From positions 1 to 54,711 of the forward strand of contig JACSRL010000495.1 of assembly GCA_014879765.1 (NCBI GenBank): a stretch of DNA of 54,711 bases. The letters are read 5' to 3'. The position numbers and the translations under genes are program-made. Below are positions 48,172 through 54,711 of this stretch, one piece after another. Every line of letters starts with the position of its first letter. Position 1 is the first letter of the stretch. The DNA comes from Anaerolinea sp. (lineage in GTDB: Bacteria > Chloroflexota > Anaerolineae > JAAEKA01). A model generated the notes under the pieces. It was not told where the DNA came from. It did no database searches and was given only the letters and a program-made list of their open reading frames with translations.

Positions 48172-49881
48172 TCAAAGTCCATCTTGCGTATGATATGCCG
48201 TCACCGCAGCGCGCACCGACGGATAGATGTGCTCTGTGCCAAGGCGTTTGGTCAATCCCGTCGATGTCAGGAGTTCACGCAGCGGCCCGTTCGCGCGTGC
48301 GATCCAGAGTTCAACGTTCAGGCGGTCCAGGTCCGCATCCAGGCTTTCCAGCGCCTCGGCGGCCGTCGAATCGAAATCGCTGATCGCCTCGGCGTCGAGT
48401 ATGACACACTGCAAGCCCGGCCCGGCGTTGGCGACTAACTCCGCCAGGCGCTCCGAGAAGAAGGCCGCGTTGGCAAAGACCAGCGGCGCATCGAAGCGAT
48501 AGACGATCAAGCCCGGCTCGGTCAGCGCCGTCTCTTTGTCCGCGACCTCGCGGTAGATCGTGCCGCCGGCCGCGTCCACATCATCCAGCAGAGCATCGTG
48601 CGGCCGTGAGATGTGAAAGATGACGTTGATCAGCGACAGCATGACGGCCACAAGAATGCCCTGCAGGATGCCCACGGTCAGCACGCCCAGGGCTGTCACT
48701 ATCGCCAGCCAGAACTCGGCGGGACGCACCTGTCGCAAGAAGCGAAACGCCGCCACGTCCAGCAACCCCAGCGAGGCGACAATGATCACGGCGCCCAGCA
48801 CCACGGTGGGCAGCGGCGCGAGCAGCGGTGTGAAGAAGAGCAGGAAAACGACGGTCAGCGCGGCCGCGATCAGTCCGACCCACTGCGATTTGCCGCCCAT
48901 CTGGTCGGAGACGGCCGTGCGCGAGCCGCTGGTGGCAGCAGGAAATCCGGTCAAGATCCCTGCACCAATATTGGCCATGCCGATTGCGACAAACTCCTGG
49001 TTGGCGTCGATCTTCTGGCCGTGTTTGGCCGCAAAGACGCGCGCGGTCAGGACCTCATCGGCATAGATCAGGATCGTGAGGGCCAGGGCCGCGGGCAACA
49101 GCGTAAAGACGTCCTGTACTTTGACCGCGGGGATCGCCAGGCTCGGCAGGCCGGCCGGCACGGCGCCGACGATCGCAACGCCCTTGGCCTGCAAATCGAA
49201 GACTGCTGAGACGATGATGGCGACCACCACGACGATCAGCGAGCCGGGCAAGGCGCGATTCACCCGGCGCATGATCAACAACGCCGCCATGCTAACGACG
49301 CCAATGGCGACGGTGAGCACGTGCGCTTCGTCCAGGCGGCTGATCAGCTCCGCAACCTGGCGGAAAAACTCGTCGCTCTCGAGCTTGATGCCAAACATCT
49401 TGCCCAATTGGCTGCCGATCACGATCAGGGTGGTGCCAAAGATGTAGCCCACGAGGATCGGCTTGGACAGGAAGTCGGTGATGAAACCCAGCCGCGCCGC
49501 GCGGGCCAGCAGCGCCAGCGCGCCGACGAGCAGCGCAGTCAGCGCGGCGAGCGCCGCATAGCGCACGGGATCACCGCCGGCCAATGGTGCAACTGCGGCC
49601 GCAGTCATGATCGCGGTCGTCGCTTCGGGTCCCATGATGAGCTGTTTGGACGTGCCGAAGAGCGCGTACATCACCATCGCGCCGAGCGCGACGTACAGTC
49701 CCGCGACCGGTGTGACCCCGGCCAGATCGCCGTAAGCCATGGCCGAGGGCACGAGCACCGCAAACACTGTGACGGCCACGACGAGCTCCGAGCGCAGCAG
49801 CGCGGGGTTGAACCCTCTGATCAGGGCCAGACCGGGAATGAAGCGGGCAATGCCCGTGGAGGTTGGTTGTGGTGGATTCAT
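48172..49881 (-). CDS. SulP-family anion (sulfate) permease with C-terminal STAS domain
   Basis: About 11 TM segments, with AMAYGDLAGV and AIGMANIGAGILTGFPA. STAS-like tail (VILDAEAISDFDSTAAEAL). RBS AAGGAG. Confidence 0.9.
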   Translation of the reverse strand: MNPPQPTSTGIARFIPGLALIRGFNPALLRSELVVAVTVFAVLVPSAMAYGDLAGVTPVAGLYVALGAMVMYALFGTSKQLIMGPEATTAIMTAAAVAPLAGGDPVRYAALAALTALLVGALALLARAARLGFITDFLSKPILVGYIFGTTLIVIGSQLGKMFGIKLESDEFFRQVAELISRLDEAHVLTVAIGVVSMAALLIMRRVNRALPGSLIVVVVAIIVSAVFDLQAKGVAIVGAVPAGLPSLAIPAVKVQDVFTLLPAALALTILIYADEVLTARVFAAKHGQKIDANQEFVAIGMANIGAGILTGFPAATSGSRTAVSDQMGGKSQWVGLIAAALTVVFLLFFTPLLAPLPTVVLGAVIIVASLGLLDVAAFRFLRQVRPAEFWLAIVTALGVLTVGILQGILVAVMLSLINVIFHISRPHDALLDDVDAAGGTIYREVADKETALTEPGLIVYRFDAPLVFANAAFFSERLAELVANAGPGLQCVILDAEAISDFDSTAAEALESLDADLDRLNVELWIARANGPLRELLTSTGLTKRLGTEHIYPSVRAAVTAYHTQDGL

Positions 49882-49889
49882 GGGACTCC

Positions 49890-51269
49890 TTAGGCGCCAG
49901 CCAGTTTTATCTGAAAGGCTTCACAGCTTCGTGCGATGAGCTGCCGGTCCTGCTCGATCAGGCCGCCTGCCTGGCTTTCCGCCTGGATGAGGCTGACGTG
50001 ACGAAGCAATTGCCGCCGCGCCTCAGGCGCTTTCGTCTCCTGACCCATCACGTCGATTGTTTCCAGCATGTGCAGCAGGACGCTGGCGTTGTCGCAACTG
50101 GCATGGCGGAGCATATCGAAGGCGGCGCTGAGCAGCTCGTCCAAGGTAACCGGTTCCAGAGCAAAGTCAAGCCGGTCATCCATGTCGAAGGAGAGGGCAG
50201 TGCGCTCACCCTGGCGGATGAACAGCGCCATGCCTTCGCCGATGTAATCCAGGCAGGTCATGGCCGTGAACGGGTCATTGATGGCCGGAGACATGGCGCG
50301 CACGGCCATTTCGGTGAGCTGGTTGACCGCGTACTTGACATCCTGGGTGGGAGTGCGCACGTTGCCGATCTGGAAGGCGTGACGAATCTCGCGCTCCAAT
50401 GGCTCGTCGATCTGGCTCGCGGGCCAAACCAGCGCAACCAGGCCGCCGCGCCGGACAAAATGCCCTGGCTTACGCAGCAGATGGACGACCAGATTCTTTT
50501 CCCGGGCCACGGCAGACAAGATATCCGGATCGATGTACTGAATGTAACCTGCCCTGCGAGCGCGGACCGGATAGCCTTCTGTCTCCAGCGCGCTGTTCTT
50601 GACTGTCGGGGTAGCCGGCGAGCCCTGGACATCGGTGCGCTGTTGCAGCCCGCCCCGATCGTCATCGCCACTGGTGACTTCATCCGGGATATCTGCGCTG
50701 ACAGCATCCAGCAACTCCGCGCCTGCCGCGGCTGCAATGTTGGGGGCTTGCAGCATGGTGCTGATGTGCTGGACCAGCACGATCAGCGAGGCGAAGGTCG
50801 CCAGCATCAGGTACAATCCCACCGTGGCCGTCAACTGCGGGCCTTGGGGCTGTACCTCGACCGGAGGAATGGAAAGGGCACCTGCGACGCAGTACACAAA
50901 GGCGCCCACGAACATGCCCAGAACCGATTGGGTGGTGCGATCGCCCAGGAATAGGCGCAGCAAGCGCGAGCCATACTGGGCCGCCACCGTCGACAGCGGC
51001 AGGGTGAGCAGCGTGAAGACCACACCGGCGGTGGCCAGGACGGTGCCGGCCATGTTCAACAGGGCGCTACGCAGCTCAGCTACGGTGCCGGACAGGACAA
51101 AACGGCTATTCTGTAGGGCTTCATTGGGGATACGGCTGTCCACCCAATACATGGTCCATGCCAACAGCACCGCTACCAGCGCCATGAGCGCCGGCGCGAA
51201 CCAGAAACTCACCTTCAGACGGTCCCAACGGTAACGGGCTGCGACTCTTCTCTCAGCGCGGGTTCCCAC
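49890..51269 (-). CDS. DUF2254 family membrane protein
   Basis: GTG 51269 preceded by AGGAG. N-terminal TM helices with TVAAQYGSRLLRLFLGD and a large soluble C-terminal domain. Confidence 0.75.
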   Translation of the reverse strand: MGTRAERRVAARYRWDRLKVSFWFAPALMALVAVLLAWTMYWVDSRIPNEALQNSRFVLSGTVAELRSALLNMAGTVLATAGVVFTLLTLPLSTVAAQYGSRLLRLFLGDRTTQSVLGMFVGAFVYCVAGALSIPPVEVQPQGPQLTATVGLYLMLATFASLIVLVQHISTMLQAPNIAAAAGAELLDAVSADIPDEVTSGDDDRGGLQQRTDVQGSPATPTVKNSALETEGYPVRARRAGYIQYIDPDILSAVAREKNLVVHLLRKPGHFVRRGGLVALVWPASQIDEPLEREIRHAFQIGNVRTPTQDVKYAVNQLTEMAVRAMSPAINDPFTAMTCLDYIGEGMALFIRQGERTALSFDMDDRLDFALEPVTLDELLSAAFDMLRHASCDNASVLLHMLETIDVMGQETKAPEARRQLLRHVSLIQAESQAGGLIEQDRQLIARSCEAFQIKLAGA

Positions 51270-51291
51270 GGGACACTCCTGAGCTTACGTG

Positions 51292-52578
51292 CTAGGCCGG
51301 CGTCTCAGGCGGGAGGGACTGGGCCTGAGCGGCGGCGCGGCGGGCGGCGCGCAAGGCCAGCAGCGCGGTCAGCAGGGCGCTAACAACCACGGCCACGGCG
51401 ATTACGGCCGCGGTTTCCTTCTGCACCAGGACCATCGCAAAGAGCGCTGCGAACAGCGGCGCCTTCAAAGCCGCGACCAACGCGCCCGCCATCGTCGCCG
51501 CGACGGTGACCGCCACCGGGATGCCAGGAATTACCAGGTTCACCGCCAGGCCCAACGCGACGCTGGCAAACATGATGGGGAAGATGTAGCCGCCTTTCCA
51601 GCCGGTGGCGAGCAGCAGGGAGGTAGCGAGCAGCTTGGCCAACCCTAACACGATCAGCATCAGGACGCCGATCTCAGCGGCATGGACGATCAAGTCAGCC
51701 GTCTCTGCCTCGCCCGAGAACAGCGTCAGCGGCAGCAGCGCGCCAATGATGCCCATACCCAGGCCGCCGAGCAGCCCGCGCAGCACCAGGTGCGTCCTCA
51801 TGGGCTGGAAGAGCTGTTGCAGGCGTCGGAGTGAAGCCATGAACAGCAGGCCGACCACCGCACCGATCAGGCCCAGCGGCGCGGCGTAGAGCAGATCCCG
51901 CAGACGAGGCGTATAGGCCGGAAACTGGTACAACGTCTCGAAGAAAGTCCCGCTCAGCAAGACGAACACCACCGTGGCCACGGCTGAGGCCAGCAGGCTG
52001 GGAAACAGCACCCAAAAGTAGGTCTGCTTGCCGCCTGTACCGCCCTGCGCCGATTCCAAACCCAGCAGCGCCCCGCCGATCGGATTGGTGATGAAAGCGG
52101 CGAGCATGCCGCTGACGCCGGAATAGCCCAGCGTGCGCGTCTCTTGCTCGTTGAGCTTGAGCCGGTCGGAGAGCAATGTGCCGGCGCCGCCGCAGGCGTC
52201 CGCCAGCGGCGCTTCGGGACCCAGGCTCGCGCCGGAGACGAGCGACACGAAGGCGGTAAGGACGATGCCGGGCGCGTTGCGATACTCGAAACGGCCGGTC
52301 TTGCCAAACTCGAGCATCAGGTCGGCAAAGATGGCGTTGTGGTCGCCAAAGCGCTTGACCAGCAGCCCGACGAGCAGGCCGCCCAGGGCGCAGACGAGCA
52401 GGGTGAAAAGGCGCGTATCCAGCCCCAGCGCTGATGCCGCTCGCTCCCAGACCAGCGCCGTGCCCTGATGCACCAGGGCGACAAACACAAAGGTGACCAG
52501 GGCGCTGATCAGGCCCAGCACGACGACGAGCGCCATGAGCTTGATATAGGCTGCTGGTCGGGCTTGGGGATCGATCAT
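51292..52578 (-). CDS. ClC-family voltage-gated chloride channel/antiporter
   Basis: Motifs GASLGPEAP (GxEGP-like), GGALLGLE and GGYIFPIMF. About 10 TM helices. Confidence 0.9.
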   Translation of the reverse strand: MIDPQARPAAYIKLMALVVVLGLISALVTFVFVALVHQGTALVWERAASALGLDTRLFTLLVCALGGLLVGLLVKRFGDHNAIFADLMLEFGKTGRFEYRNAPGIVLTAFVSLVSGASLGPEAPLADACGGAGTLLSDRLKLNEQETRTLGYSGVSGMLAAFITNPIGGALLGLESAQGGTGGKQTYFWVLFPSLLASAVATVVFVLLSGTFFETLYQFPAYTPRLRDLLYAAPLGLIGAVVGLLFMASLRRLQQLFQPMRTHLVLRGLLGGLGMGIIGALLPLTLFSGEAETADLIVHAAEIGVLMLIVLGLAKLLATSLLLATGWKGGYIFPIMFASVALGLAVNLVIPGIPVAVTVAATMAGALVAALKAPLFAALFAMVLVQKETAAVIAVAVVVSALLTALLALRAARRAAAQAQSLPPETPA

Positions 52579-52714
52579 AGTGGGGCCTTCCTCATGATCT
52601 TGCCATTGAACTTGAACGGAGTCTTGTCATGCCGCAGGCGCAATTGCGCCGTTGGTCAGGCGTGGCCGCCGGCAGGACAGAAGCGCTGTTGCCGGCAGCC
52701 ACGCCGTGTACCTG

Positions 52715-52951
52715 CTAGCGCAACAGTCCGACGCCATTGCGGCGTCCGCCGACCCCGCCGACAGGACCGGGGGGATTCGGTCCACGGCCGACTCCGCCAA
52801 CTGGGCCTGGAGGATTCGGTCCGCGGCCGACTCCGCCGACAGGTCCCGGTGGATTGGGCCCCCGCCCGACTCCGCCTACAGGCCCCGGAGGGTTACCGGC
52901 GCCAACTCCGCCAACAGGTCCCGGTGGATTAGGTCCTCTTCTACCTGGCAT
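52715..52951 (-). CDS. 78-aa Gly/Pro-rich tandem-repeat peptide (5 x GPNPPGPVGGVGR)
   Basis: ATG 52951 preceded by AAAGGAGAA. Sequence is MPGRRGPNPPGPVGGVGAGNPPGPVGGVGRGPNPPGPVGGVGRGPNPPGPVGGVGRGPNPPGPVGGVGGRRNGVGLLR. DNA differences among repeats fall on third codon positions of this frame. Confidence 0.6.
   Translation of the reverse strand: MPGRRGPNPPGPVGGVGAGNPPGPVGGVGRGPNPPGPVGGVGRGPNPPGPVGGVGRGPNPPGPVGGVGGRRNGVGLLR
52751..52942. repeat. five tandem 36-39-nt DNA repeats underlying the Gly/Pro peptide
   Basis: Units start at 52751, 52790, 52829, 52868 (36 nt) and 52904, each beginning GACYCCGCC or AACTCCGCC on the plus strand. Confidence 0.9.
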
Positions 52952-53001
52952 AATGGGTTCTCCTTTGTGACTATACGGCCTTAGGTGCTGGATGGTGTGC
53001 G

Positions 53002-53427
53002 CTAATCCGCGCTCATTGCCTGTACGAACTCTTCGACGATTTCGGGCGCGATCTGGGCGCGCTCCACCAGGAAGCCGCCGGCATCTACAACGGCCTGGCG
53101 GAGATGGGCTACCCACAGATTCTCCCACAAGATGAGCATGGCCGCCGACTTGTTGGGCAGCTTGCGCGCAGCGATTTCCAGGTCGTCGTTCGTGAAGAGG
53201 CTGGAAACGTGCTCGCCCATCGGGACGAACATCTCATACGATTTGGGGTCGAGATCGTTGAGCTCGACGGTGCGGATGGCGCCGTCCTCCTCCTTGTGGA
53301 TGAAGACGATGTCCACAAAGCGCACGATGCCGCGTTCCGCCAGGTCCAGCAGCTCGGGAACGATCTTGCCGGTAGGCTCGGCGTTCTCGAAGGCGATCAA
53401 GGCATATTCCAGGGGAAGGTCGAACAT
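53002..53427 (-). CDS. DUF6325/DUF1269-like stress-associated protein (141 aa)
   Basis: Motifs EYALIAFENAEPTGKIVPELLDLAERGIVRFVDIVFIHKEEDGAIRTVELNDLD and AAMLILWENLWVAHL. RBS AAGGAG. Family assignment is from memory. Confidence 0.6.
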   Translation of the reverse strand: MFDLPLEYALIAFENAEPTGKIVPELLDLAERGIVRFVDIVFIHKEEDGAIRTVELNDLDPKSYEMFVPMGEHVSSLFTNDDLEIAARKLPNKSAAMLILWENLWVAHLRQAVVDAGGFLVERAQIAPEIVEEFVQAMSAD

Positions 53428-53448
53428 TGGCTGGCTCCTTGGGTTGGC

Positions 53449-53479
53449 GCCCGCAGGGTTCTTTATGAACCCTGCGGGC
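53449..53479. repeat. 12-bp-stem hairpin after the arylsulfatase gene
   Basis: GCCCGCAGGGTT, loop CTTTATG, then AACCCTGCGGGC. No clear U-run on the minus strand. Confidence 0.7.
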
Positions 53480-53513
53480 TTCGAATGTTGCTTGCGACAA
53501 GTCGCACCCGGCG

Positions 53514-54711
53514 CTACTGCCGCGCCATGATGATCTTCATATCAGCTTCGCTATCCGGAATCAGCTCGCCGGACAGATCCAAAGCGACACGCTTGATGGT
53601 TCCGGTGAAGCGGAACTCATCGCTGTATTCCTCCCTTGCCACGAGGTCGCCGGCGTCATAGCCGCAGCTTAGTCCCTCCGTGCCCCACATGTTGAGCATC
53701 GAATGAGGCATGTCGATGCTGGCGACCAGCTTGCGGTTGATGTAAAGCTGGCCGCGCGCCGGCACACCTTTGCCCTGAGCAGGATCGGGTTTGCCGGTTG
53801 GCTCGAACTCATAACGCAGCTCGACTTCACCCTCCGGCACCACCTCACTAGACTTCAACCAGAACTTGTCGCGGGCGAGCCAGTTGTACAGGAAGTACAG
53901 CTTGTGGTCTTTGACAAAGAAGGTGAAGCCGCTGGTGCCGCCGCCTTGCGCCAACAGCACGCCCTCAGCGCCGCCTTGTGGGATCAAGACCTCGGCCGTG
54001 ATGCTCCAGGGCCGATTGTAAGTCTTGGGCGTCGCGGCAAACGGCACCGGCGACCCACCAGGGTAGAAGACGACCTTGTTGCGCGGCTTGGCGATGGTGG
54101 GGCGTTCGACATTGATACGCTGGAGCGCGCTGCCGTCGATGGGCAAGACGTCGTACTTGCCCGCCTCGGCCCACCAGCGGCCGATCATTTCGATCAGCTT
54201 GTCGCGCCGTTCAGCGGCCAGATTGTGGCACTCGGAGTAGTCCTCGTCTACGTGATACAACTCCCAGTCGTGCGTTTCGATGTCCAGAAGCACGGTGTTG
54301 TCGATGGGCGTGCCAAAGCGGCGACCCTTCTGGGCGGCCTCCGTGAAGTTTGGCCCCGGCCAGGGGCAGACCGCCCGCCAGCCGTCGTGGTAGATCGCCC
54401 GGTGACCGAACATCTCGAAATACTGAGTGTGGCGATTGCTGGACGCAGTGGCTTCGTTGAAAGAGTGGGCGAAACTCACCCCGTCGATAGGCGCCTGGGC
54501 CACACCGCGGATGTTCTCCGGCGCTTCGATGCCAAGGCTATCCAAGACCGTCGGGACAAGATCGATGATGTGCCCATACTGCGGCCGGATCTCGCTGTGT
54601 GCCTGAATCGCTTTTGGCCACGACACGATGCACGGGTCGGTGGTGCCGCCGCGGTAGGTCTCGCGCTTCCAGCGGCGGAAGGGCGTGTTGCCGGCGTTGG
54701 TCCAGCCCCAG
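53514..54711 (-). CDS. arylsulfatase, C-terminal approx 400 aa (gene continues past the right edge)
   Basis: The frame is open to the window end (…NAGNTPFRRWKRETYRGGTTDPCIVSWPKAI…). Motifs LVPTVLDSLGIEAP and PIDGVSFAHSF are typical of large AtsA-type sulfatases. The catalytic N-terminus is not in the window. Confidence 0.85.
   Translation of the reverse strand, partial: WGWTNAGNTPFRRWKRETYRGGTTDPCIVSWPKAIQAHSEIRPQYGHIIDLVPTVLDSLGIEAPENIRGVAQAPIDGVSFAHSFNEATASSNRHTQYFEMFGHRAIYHDGWRAVCPWPGPNFTEAAQKGRRFGTPIDNTVLLDIETHDWELYHVDEDYSECHNLAAERRDKLIEMIGRWWAEAGKYDVLPIDGSALQRINVERPTIAKPRNKVVFYPGGSPVPFAATPKTYNRPWSITAEVLIPQGGAEGVLLAQGGGTSGFTFFVKDHKLYFLYNWLARDKFWLKSSEVVPEGEVELRYEFEPTGKPDPAQGKGVPARGQLYINRKLVASIDMPHSMLNMWGTEGLSCGYDAGDLVAREEYSDEFRFTGTIKRVALDLSGELIPDSEADMKIIMARQ

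Follow-up and report, generated by a model that had tools for sequence, protein, structure and literature searches.

Does a short array of tandem Gly/Pro repeats in an Anaerolinea sp. contig encode a protein, on which strand, and what could that protein be doing? The window analysed here is the whole stretch of 54,711 nucleotides of contig JACSRL010000495.1 (assembly GCA_014879765.1), and the element in question is a minus-strand open reading frame (ORF) of 78 codons, called PEP, whose position is given in Table 1 together with those of the other features. Comparison with orthologs identifies PEP as a microprotein gene under strong purifying selection, conserved as a pair with an upstream gene of the DUF6325 family, and leads to a tentative proposal on how the two products may be related.

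Structure of the PEP gene

The PEP translation consists of MPGRR, five units of 13, 12, 13, 13 and 13 residues (GPNPPGPVGGVGR) and the ending RNGVGLLR followed by TAG, the second unit being the 12-residue variant AG-NPPGPVGGVG; parsed in full it reads MPGRR GPNPPGPVGGVG A GNPPGPVGGVG R GPNPPGPVGGVG R GPNPPGPVGGVG R GPNPPGPVGGVG GRRNGVGLLR. At the DNA level, Tandem Repeats Finder reported a 39-nt period with 3.7 copies at 52748-52891, and the longest exact repeat within the gene is 17 nt. A preliminary description, made from the sequence alone, had placed the ORF, its ribosome-binding site and its five repeats exactly where they were found. It had also stated that the repeats differ at synonymous sites, and in the five 30-nt unit cores (NPPGPVGGVG) all 52 of the 52 pairwise differences and all 9 of the 9 variable columns were indeed located at the third codon position of the minus frame.

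The peptide had been described as basic, rich in Gly and Pro, devoid of a signal peptide and probably disordered, consistent with its composition (Gly 37%, Pro 26%, Val 14%), its net charge of +8 and an AlphaFold2 (AF2) model without any fold, obtained from a shallow alignment of 7 sequences (predicted local distance difference test, pLDDT, 52.6; predicted template modelling score, pTM, 0.11). The term elastin-like, used in the same description, is suitable for the composition but not for the repeat, which contains no VPGXG unit.

The minus strand is the coding strand

In the preliminary description, purifying selection on the minus-frame peptide was deduced from the synonymous nature of the differences between repeats and from the fact that two plus-strand ORFs across the region become unrelated sequences. 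These two ORFs (52468-52932 and 52652-52984) are scrambled across units, with a proportion of non-synonymous differences (pN) of ~0.29-0.31, but a third plus-strand ORF, the antisense ORF of Table 1, had been overlooked and is nearly as conserved as PEP itself. Its third codon positions fall on those of PEP and, opposite the Gly, Pro, Val and Arg codons of PEP, it carries Pro, Gly, Thr and Arg codons, likewise fourfold degenerate. It is regular and free of stops because Gly, Pro, Val, Arg and Asn codons allow no opposing stop in that register. Nei-Gojobori analysis of 54 thirteen-codon units from 15 orthologs gave a proportion of synonymous differences (pS) of 0.60 and a pN of 0.042 for the sense frame, as compared with a pS of 0.57 and a pN of 0.059 for the wobble-sharing antisense frame, while the remaining four frames had a pN of ~0.3. 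Consequently, since the antisense frame is nearly as conserved, synonymous divergence between repeats alone cannot pick the coding strand. The ratio of non-synonymous to synonymous substitution rates (dN/dS), a check that had been proposed beforehand, was ~0.035 for PEP in the comparison of units.

The choice between strands comes from the orthologs. Among the 60 distinct orthologous genes, the Asn codon preceding PPG is AAT in 252 cases and AAC in 28, and AAA or AAG in none of the 280, although the third position of this codon would be unconstrained in the wobble-sharing antisense frame. A motif resembling the Shine-Dalgarno (SD) sequence precedes the ATG in 58 of the 59 orthologs having upstream sequence, and the C-terminus RRNG(V/P/R)GLLR and the stop behind it are conserved as well. 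The antisense frame, on the other hand, has only a TTG start, no SD sequence and variable ends, and in locus L030 it has no start ahead of the repeats. Therefore, with its Asn codons restricted to AAT and AAC (AAY), its SD sequence and ATG, its conserved ending and an antisense frame lacking a conserved start, the minus ORF is the gene; all genes flanking it also lie on the minus strand. Strong purifying selection on the minus-frame peptide is thus shown by the ortholog data, the argument from synonymous sites being insufficient when taken alone.

Distribution and variation of the PEP family

The search for similar repeats in related genomes, also proposed beforehand, returned genes of 3-6 units in which the minus-frame peptide is preserved. 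A protein database search with PEP gave 74 matches at E up to 1, of which the top ~25 have the same design. Twelve loci were found in a scan of species representatives, in metagenome-assembled genomes (MAGs) labelled Chloroflexia, Anaerolineae, Chloroflexota, Gaiellales, Actinomycetes and Actinomycetota (labels taken at face value), and 51 further loci in a metagenome scan, chiefly in freshwater sediment and wetland samples. Once pooled, these amount to 60 distinct coding sequences for 53 distinct proteins, 50-88 residues long, with three units in 4 genes, four in 13, five in 42 and six in 1. The 258 canonical units are written in 221 different DNA sequences and yet encode one peptide. Wobble identity is 0.57 between units of the same gene but only 0.42 when the units come from different genes, and three orthologs contain exact repeats 51-59 nt long. 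Copy number therefore shifts by recent duplication or loss of units, followed by synonymous drift, during which the amino-acid constraint on the units is near-absolute.

PEP is rare in genomes: a single genome carried it out of 401 sampled evenly across the phylum, as did 4 of the 17 in the order, and within the genus the locus is present, reduced or deleted. It is an accessory gene, and its peptide identity of 95-100% across two phyla suggests horizontal transfer. Frameshifted variants in the database (P0009, P0015 and others) are most simply explained as indel errors in long-read MAGs. No match to PEP was found in Pfam-A, NCBIfam, PADLOC, PHROGs or PDB sequences, and a literature search for DUF6325 and for the repeat motif gave nothing relevant, in agreement with the earlier statement that no such family has been described.

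Codon usage of PEP is peculiar. Its G+C content at third codon positions (GC3), already noted as unusually low, is 0.51 as compared with 0.76-0.84 in the four adjoining genes, and the gene is rich in rare codons, GGA accounting for 11 of its 29 Gly codons versus 4 of 111 in the neighbours, with AGA present too. Across orthologs, Asn is encoded by AAT in 90% of cases whereas neighbouring genes favour AAC, and in the first 14 orthologs the first Gly of the GG pair was GGC or GGT in 63 of 63 units; the pooled set shows a third allele. The stop codon of the 60 distinct orthologs is TAG in 51, TAA in 9 and TGA in none, despite saturated synonymous sites elsewhere and G+C-rich genomes. When recoded with the favoured codons of its neighbours, PEP would reach 88% G+C. 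Avoidance of G/C runs, of internal SD-like GGAGG or of extreme mRNA structure are possible reasons for a codon constraint exceeding that on the amino acids. A choice of codons that keeps the DNA repeats dissimilar was rejected on account of the higher wobble identity within genes and the long exact repeats described above.

Linkage of PEP to the upstream DUF6325 gene

The product of the gene directly upstream of PEP had been called a DUF6325-like stress protein. Its assignment to DUF6325 was confirmed (PF19850, 26.7 bits against a gathering threshold of 23.4, model positions 7-135 of 141), whereas the words stress protein found no support. Two paralogues of the same genome score higher with this model (42-51 bits), and neither PADLOC nor PHROGs gave a match for the window protein. 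A DUF6325 gene lies directly 5' of PEP at every genome locus except that of G004, and at every metagenome locus whose upstream sequence measures 120 nt or more. Identity of the PEP-linked DUF6325 proteins to the window copy is 64-94% across aligned loci and 57-93% in metagenome fragments; the database contains 1,444 clusters related to this subfamily. Within the 17 genomes of the order, DUF6325 proteins at least 79% identical to it were found only in G000, G009 and G011, all of them PEP carriers, all other copies being at most 37% identical. The DUF6325-PEP gene pair and its neighbourhood are thus conserved.

Two natural deletions bear on this linkage. In G007, which belongs to the same genus, a single deletion took DUF6325 from codon 23 onwards together with the PEP gene and the spacer, and the remaining stub abuts the upstream region of a ClC gene. 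In G004, on the other hand, PEP has no adjacent DUF6325 gene and is found after a META-domain-like gene (named from its sequence) and before an Ion_trans gene, on a contig of 1.2 kb from a 72%-complete MAG. The G007 locus also contains an ORF fusing a ClC-like N-terminus to a sulfatase C-terminus, which could be a rearrangement or a misassembly. Fusion of DUF6325 and PEP by frameshift or read-through was considered and rejected, the two frames being different and the long open frame 5' of the ATG being missing in several orthologs.

DUF6325 is related to DUF1269 and has SHOCT-type partners

The AF2 model of the window DUF6325 is an alpha/beta domain (pLDDT 75.6, pTM 0.74) whose loop ~57-79 is modelled with poor confidence despite its conserved sequence. 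When this model was compared with the PDB by Foldseek, no hit had an E below 0.1 and the best were weak alpha/beta hits with a TM-score below 0.41; phmmer against the PDB gave nothing. Residues 5-129 nevertheless align at E 5e-18 with a 439-residue protein of the related genome G015 which has a ~25-residue Gly-rich insert exactly at the low-confidence loop. The insert and the C-terminal half of this protein match Pfam DUF1269 (PF06897; 6e-8), with a weak Gly-zipper_YMGG match below the cut-off. A canonical DUF1269 protein of the window genome has the same layout, with an N-terminal half, a hydrophobic Gly zipper and a C-terminal half, and a preprint independently describes DUF1269 as a ferredoxin-fold domain into which a glycine zipper is embedded (bioRxiv 10.1101/2024.07.07.602159). 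Direct comparison of the DUF6325 alignment with a single DUF1269 sequence by hhalign was weak (E 0.012, N-terminal half only), so the link rests on the bridging G015 protein.

Through this protein, DUF6325 and DUF1269 align end to end, the zipper of the latter being located at the poorly modelled loop of the former, and homology of DUF6325 to DUF1269-type proteins is shown at the level of sequence comparison. Since the bridging protein, the canonical layout and the preprint agree, DUF6325 is, by its sequence relationships, a DUF1269-type ferredoxin-like domain minus the embedded glycine zipper. The Gly-rich element of DUF1269 is hydrophobic and belongs to the same chain, whereas PEP is a separate, soluble repeat protein containing Pro and Arg, encoded next door to DUF6325. 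The bridging protein is also characterised by a DUF6325-like N-terminal half, an EHHW motif and, after the Gly-rich insert, a long acidic Ala/Glu-rich tail, and its gene adjoins a canonical DUF1269 gene. This bacterial family is unusually rich in DUF1269 genes, G000 having 6 and the number per genome reaching 10.

Both other DUF6325 genes of the window genome are followed by a gene for a small SHOCT protein that starts with MPGLVRGMARTAAVVGTATA or similar. In these partners a basic N-terminus leads into a Gly/Ala/Val/Thr segment (MPGLVRGMARTAAVVGTATA...), after which come a low-complexity linker and a SHOCT domain, the latter matched at 5e-10 and 8e-9. According to one proposal, SHOCT tethers domains to the membrane on its inner face (PMC11237479); its self-oligomerisation was unsupported by an initial test (PMC3581485). 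The DUF6325-SHOCT pairs (PF19850 then PF09851) and the DUF6325-PEP pairs have in common the family of the first gene, the gene order and the spacing, and pairs of both types occur in tandem at L023 and L039. Like PEP, the SHOCT partners are small, with a basic N-terminus (MPG..R or MRRR) and a Gly-rich segment. PEP differs in having 3-6 Gly/Pro units in place of a SHOCT domain (PF09851) and a Q/A/P linker, and its sequence likeness to these partners is not significant. Small membrane proteins of ~100-145 residues, carrying a conserved WDWLW-type motif and giving no Pfam match, recur beside DUF6325 modules (Table 1).

Downstream region and wider neighbourhood of PEP

In the window, the six co-directional genes at 48172-54711 form a string concerned with ion handling, composed of SulP/STAS, DUF2254, ClC, PEP, DUF6325 and arylsulfatase genes. 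A ClC gene or an Ion_trans K-channel-like gene is found 3' of PEP at most loci, the alternatives being genes for a 227-residue or a ~100-residue membrane protein and, in L024, genes on the opposite strand. The spacer between PEP and ClC measures ~110-275 nt, is longer before some Ion_trans genes and is not conserved in sequence. Strong hairpins are located near the PEP stop in most orthologs, again with no conservation of sequence, and in the window such a hairpin, the G+C-rich one of Table 1, probably marks the 3' end of a DUF6325-PEP transcript, although a scan for consensus promoters and terminators found nothing relevant and did not call it. The hairpins past the stop and the non-conserved spacer before ClC suggest that DUF6325 and PEP form a bicistronic unit. 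Nothing in 51000-54711 matched Rfam at E up to 1, the ClC gene having no riboswitch before it, the fluoride type included.

In 8 of 16 loci the arylsulfatase cluster c3 precedes the pair, and the SulP genes of the related locus L039 carry Sulfate_transp and STAS domains. Related loci add LAL-type regulators, a BASS-type transporter (named by sequence only), a second SulP gene and a pentameric ligand-gated channel. The PEP-ClC spacers of L060 and L084 contain several short palindromes, with G+C stems around TTGAAA or TTTCAA loops, which look like a dispersed repeat of the repetitive extragenic palindromic (REP) type.

Table 1. Coordinates of the features discussed, in the window unless a locus is named
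Feature	Position	Strand	Remarks
SulP/STAS-type permease gene	48172-49881	-	569 aa; clusters by BLASTP with c2 proteins
DUF2254 membrane protein gene	49890-51269	-	cluster c5, recurring in 5 loci
ClC-type chloride channel gene	51292-52578	-	Pfam Voltage_CLC 3e-42; 136 nt 3' of PEP
G+C-rich hairpin	52659-52705	-	16-bp arms with one G-U pair, 10 nt past the PEP stop, no U tract
Microprotein gene (PEP)	52715-52951	-	78 aa; ATG at 52951, stop TAG 52717-52715
Antisense ORF	52737-52970	+	77 aa; TTG start; PRPTPPTGPGGFG repeats; wobble positions shared with PEP; judged not a gene
Shine-Dalgarno sequence AAAGGAGAA	52966-52958	-	GGAG core 52963-52960, 8 nt ahead of the PEP ATG
DUF6325 gene	53002-53427	-	141 aa; net charge -15; 50 nt gap to the PEP ATG
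Arylsulfatase gene, 3' part	53514-54711	-	runs past the window end; Pfam Sulfatase/SGSH_C; 5' of DUF6325
DUF6325 stub of G007	L042:2146-2214 (G007:C17)		first 22 codons remain
PEP gene of G004	L007:577-810 (G004:C628)		only locus with PEP but no adjacent DUF6325
DUF6325/DUF1269 bridging protein	L103:1026-2345 (G015:C8)		439 residues
WDWLW-type membrane proteins	L023:3014-3334; L039:6879-7184; L032:1585-2022; L033:1580-1915
DRDDNPPGPxGGPG-type secreted proteins	P0022, P0026, P0029, P0044, P0054, P0065, P0204, P0215; L095

PEP as a possible multivalent partner of DUF6325

The explanation favoured here, plausible though falling somewhat short of probable, is that PEP is translated and serves as a multivalent, separately encoded Gly-rich partner of an acidic DUF6325 subfamily. 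PEP would stand in the place of the Gly-rich SHOCT partner that typically follows DUF6325, and each of its units (G-xxx-G-xxx-G with one Arg) would be one docking site for the acidic DUF6325 domain, so that one flexible chain could gather several DUF6325 copies as a multivalent scaffold. The assembly would probably be located under the membrane, beside the ion channels and transporters encoded next to it. Of the models that would account for identical selection on every unit, for the tolerance of 3-6 units and for the strict linkage to one DUF6325 subfamily, this docking-site model is the simplest. The opposite charges of the two proteins (+8 for PEP and -15 for DUF6325) also count in favour of a partnership. 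Physical binding, multivalency and the connection with membrane and channels are inferences, as is a possible functional equivalence of PEP and the glycine zipper of DUF1269.

Several observations weigh against this explanation. The PEP gene of G004 is intact with no DUF6325 gene beside it, and the ~24 substitutions that separate it from the window copy are almost all synonymous, so PEP may work alone. The NPPGPxGGxG motif is also found in unrelated secreted proteins and may have an intrinsic structural role rather than being a DUF6325-specific ligand. A glycine zipper is a GxxxGxxxG pattern in a hydrophobic helical hairpin; the PEP unit has the corresponding spacing (G-PVG-G-VGR-G) but is flanked by Pro and contains Arg, which is not what a membrane zipper has, and no Pfam Gly-zipper model matches it. 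The likeness between the N-termini of PEP and of the SHOCT partners is limited to MPG and RR and is not significant, and the function of SHOCT itself is unsettled (PMC3581485, PMC11237479).

Alternative explanations

PEP could instead be a stand-alone structural microprotein whose activity is independent of DUF6325, the linkage reflecting co-regulation only, a possibility that is on the unlikely side but has to be taken seriously. The units would then act as a polyproline-II (PPII) or beta-turn spring, an elastomer-like or salt- and temperature-responsive chain, or a small bundle of PPII helices. G004, with its selected PEP gene and no DUF6325 gene beside it, is in line with this explanation, and so is the construction of the unit from three X-Y-Gly triplets (PPG-PVG-GVG) and a 4-residue linker. 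Such a unit is as long as one PPII helix with its turn in the snow flea antifreeze protein of 81 residues, a compact bundle of PPII helices with Gly at every third residue. The 13-residue periodicity of PEP with its three triplets fits a bundle of that type, although AF2 gave no compact fold from the alignment of seven sequences. A collagen-like triple helix needs Gly-X-Y over tens of residues, whereas in PEP the three triplets are followed by a break of 3-4 residues. With elastin- and silk-like polypeptides (VPGXG, GPGGX), PEP has in common its composition, its PG and GG turns, a predicted lack of stable fold and short tandem units; it differs from them by having neither VPGXG nor GPGGX, by its 50-88 residues, its cationic character, its bacterial origin, its lack of a signal peptide and its near residue-for-residue conservation.

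The recurrence of the motif elsewhere also speaks for a stand-alone role. Its 10-residue core is common to PEP and to secreted NPPGPxGGxG-repeat proteins of Proteobacteria and others, among them an OmpA-like protein with 11 repeats and P0203; these proteins differ from PEP by their signal peptides, by flanks with TNWE or rich in Trp/Tyr or by extra domains, and by their weak E-values. Their signal peptides, absent from PEP, count against the stand-alone role, as do the near-perfect co-location with one DUF6325 subfamily and the AF2 model without a fold, itself derived from a shallow alignment.

The secreted proteins deserve a description of their own. Modules of the form DRDDNPPGPxGGPGTNWENPPGPxGGPGASPDR make up small secreted proteins of a family that is widespread and for the most part proteobacterial (Table 1), for which neither Pfam nor NCBIfam holds a family. 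The OmpA-like protein (L094:2869-4008) has 11 tandem VRVNPPGPxGGxGTG units between its signal peptide and a C-terminal region that is OmpA-like as judged by eye. P0203 is secreted and combines NPPGPxGGxG repeats with an uncharacterised C-terminal region, while P0205 is a secreted acidic protein containing GPNPPGPVGGVGVGRRRGLQ, which resembles the PEP C-terminus.

A more specific form of the partnership, which appears doubtful, is that of a split DUF1269, in which the zipper element would have moved to a separate gene and been multiplied to 3-6 docking units, the flexible cationic chain clustering several DUF6325 domains beneath the membrane as a small-protein scaffold, so far undescribed, that regulates or organises the neighbouring anion and cation channels (ClC, K channel, SulP). 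In a variant of this proposal, the PEP units could fold upon binding into polyproline-II helices.

A slightly less credible explanation makes PEP a cis-acting leader, in which stalling at PPG would delay the ribosome and let the hairpin past the stop form and end transcription before the channel gene, smooth translation masking the hairpin and leading to read-through. Pro-Pro-Gly motifs are strong stall sites that depend on elongation factor P (EF-P), and each PEP unit contains one. Rare codons are enriched (GGA, AGA, GC3 of 0.51), a strong hairpin lies 10 nt past the stop in the window and nearby in most orthologs, the gene on the 3' side is usually a co-directional ClC or Ion_trans gene, and G004 retains PEP and the channel gene in the absence of DUF6325. 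On the other hand, conservation extends beyond PPG to the whole unit and to the C-terminal RRNGVGLLR, and the downstream gene is variable (ClC, Ion_trans, the 227-residue membrane protein or others) and even on the opposite strand in L024. When compared with what is expected of a transcription attenuator, PEP has the hairpins but is a second cistron rather than the start of the transcript, and its spacer has neither conserved sequence nor alternative structure nor an Rfam match.

It is very unlikely that PEP is the precursor of ribosomally synthesised and post-translationally modified peptides (RiPPs), with the repeat unit as a core freed by cleavage after Arg. Tandem cores with Arg junctions are reminiscent of multi-core RiPP precursors, and PEP has identical cores in tandem, a variable copy number of 3-6 and an Arg at each junction; but its N-terminus of 3-5 residues offers no leader or recognition sequence, it contains no Cys, Ser, Thr or other commonly modified residue, the neighbourhood holds no conserved modifying enzyme, protease or exporter, and DUF6325 has no enzyme-like fold match. 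Hardly any credence can be given to the antisense ORF or a non-coding DNA or RNA repeat as the conserved element, since that frame, conserved and open in all orthologs as it is, is open by construction and has neither SD sequence nor ATG, while the AAY codons, the start signals and stop of the minus frame and the minus-strand neighbours all favour PEP, and the writing of one peptide in 221 DNA sequences speaks against an element of the nucleic acid itself.

Significance of the PEP family

Taken together, these results add to what had been described at this locus the caveat of a wobble-sharing antisense frame, the link between DUF6325 and DUF1269, two natural deletions and a wider distribution of the motif. 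Annotation systematically misses small proteins, and PEP is one such protein, conserved almost residue for residue across two phyla, a degree of conservation which implies a precise molecular role. Its steady placement beside ClC, K-channel and SulP genes hints at a connection with ion homeostasis. Trypsin would free every unit as the same peptide, GPNPPGPVGGVGR, which can be sought in existing metaproteomes. PEP also offers a foothold on DUF6325, DUF1269 and SHOCT, which are large families without known function, and if the glycine zipper of DUF1269 truly has its separately encoded counterpart in PEP, the way PEP binds, and with what stoichiometry, would tell what this widespread domain does.

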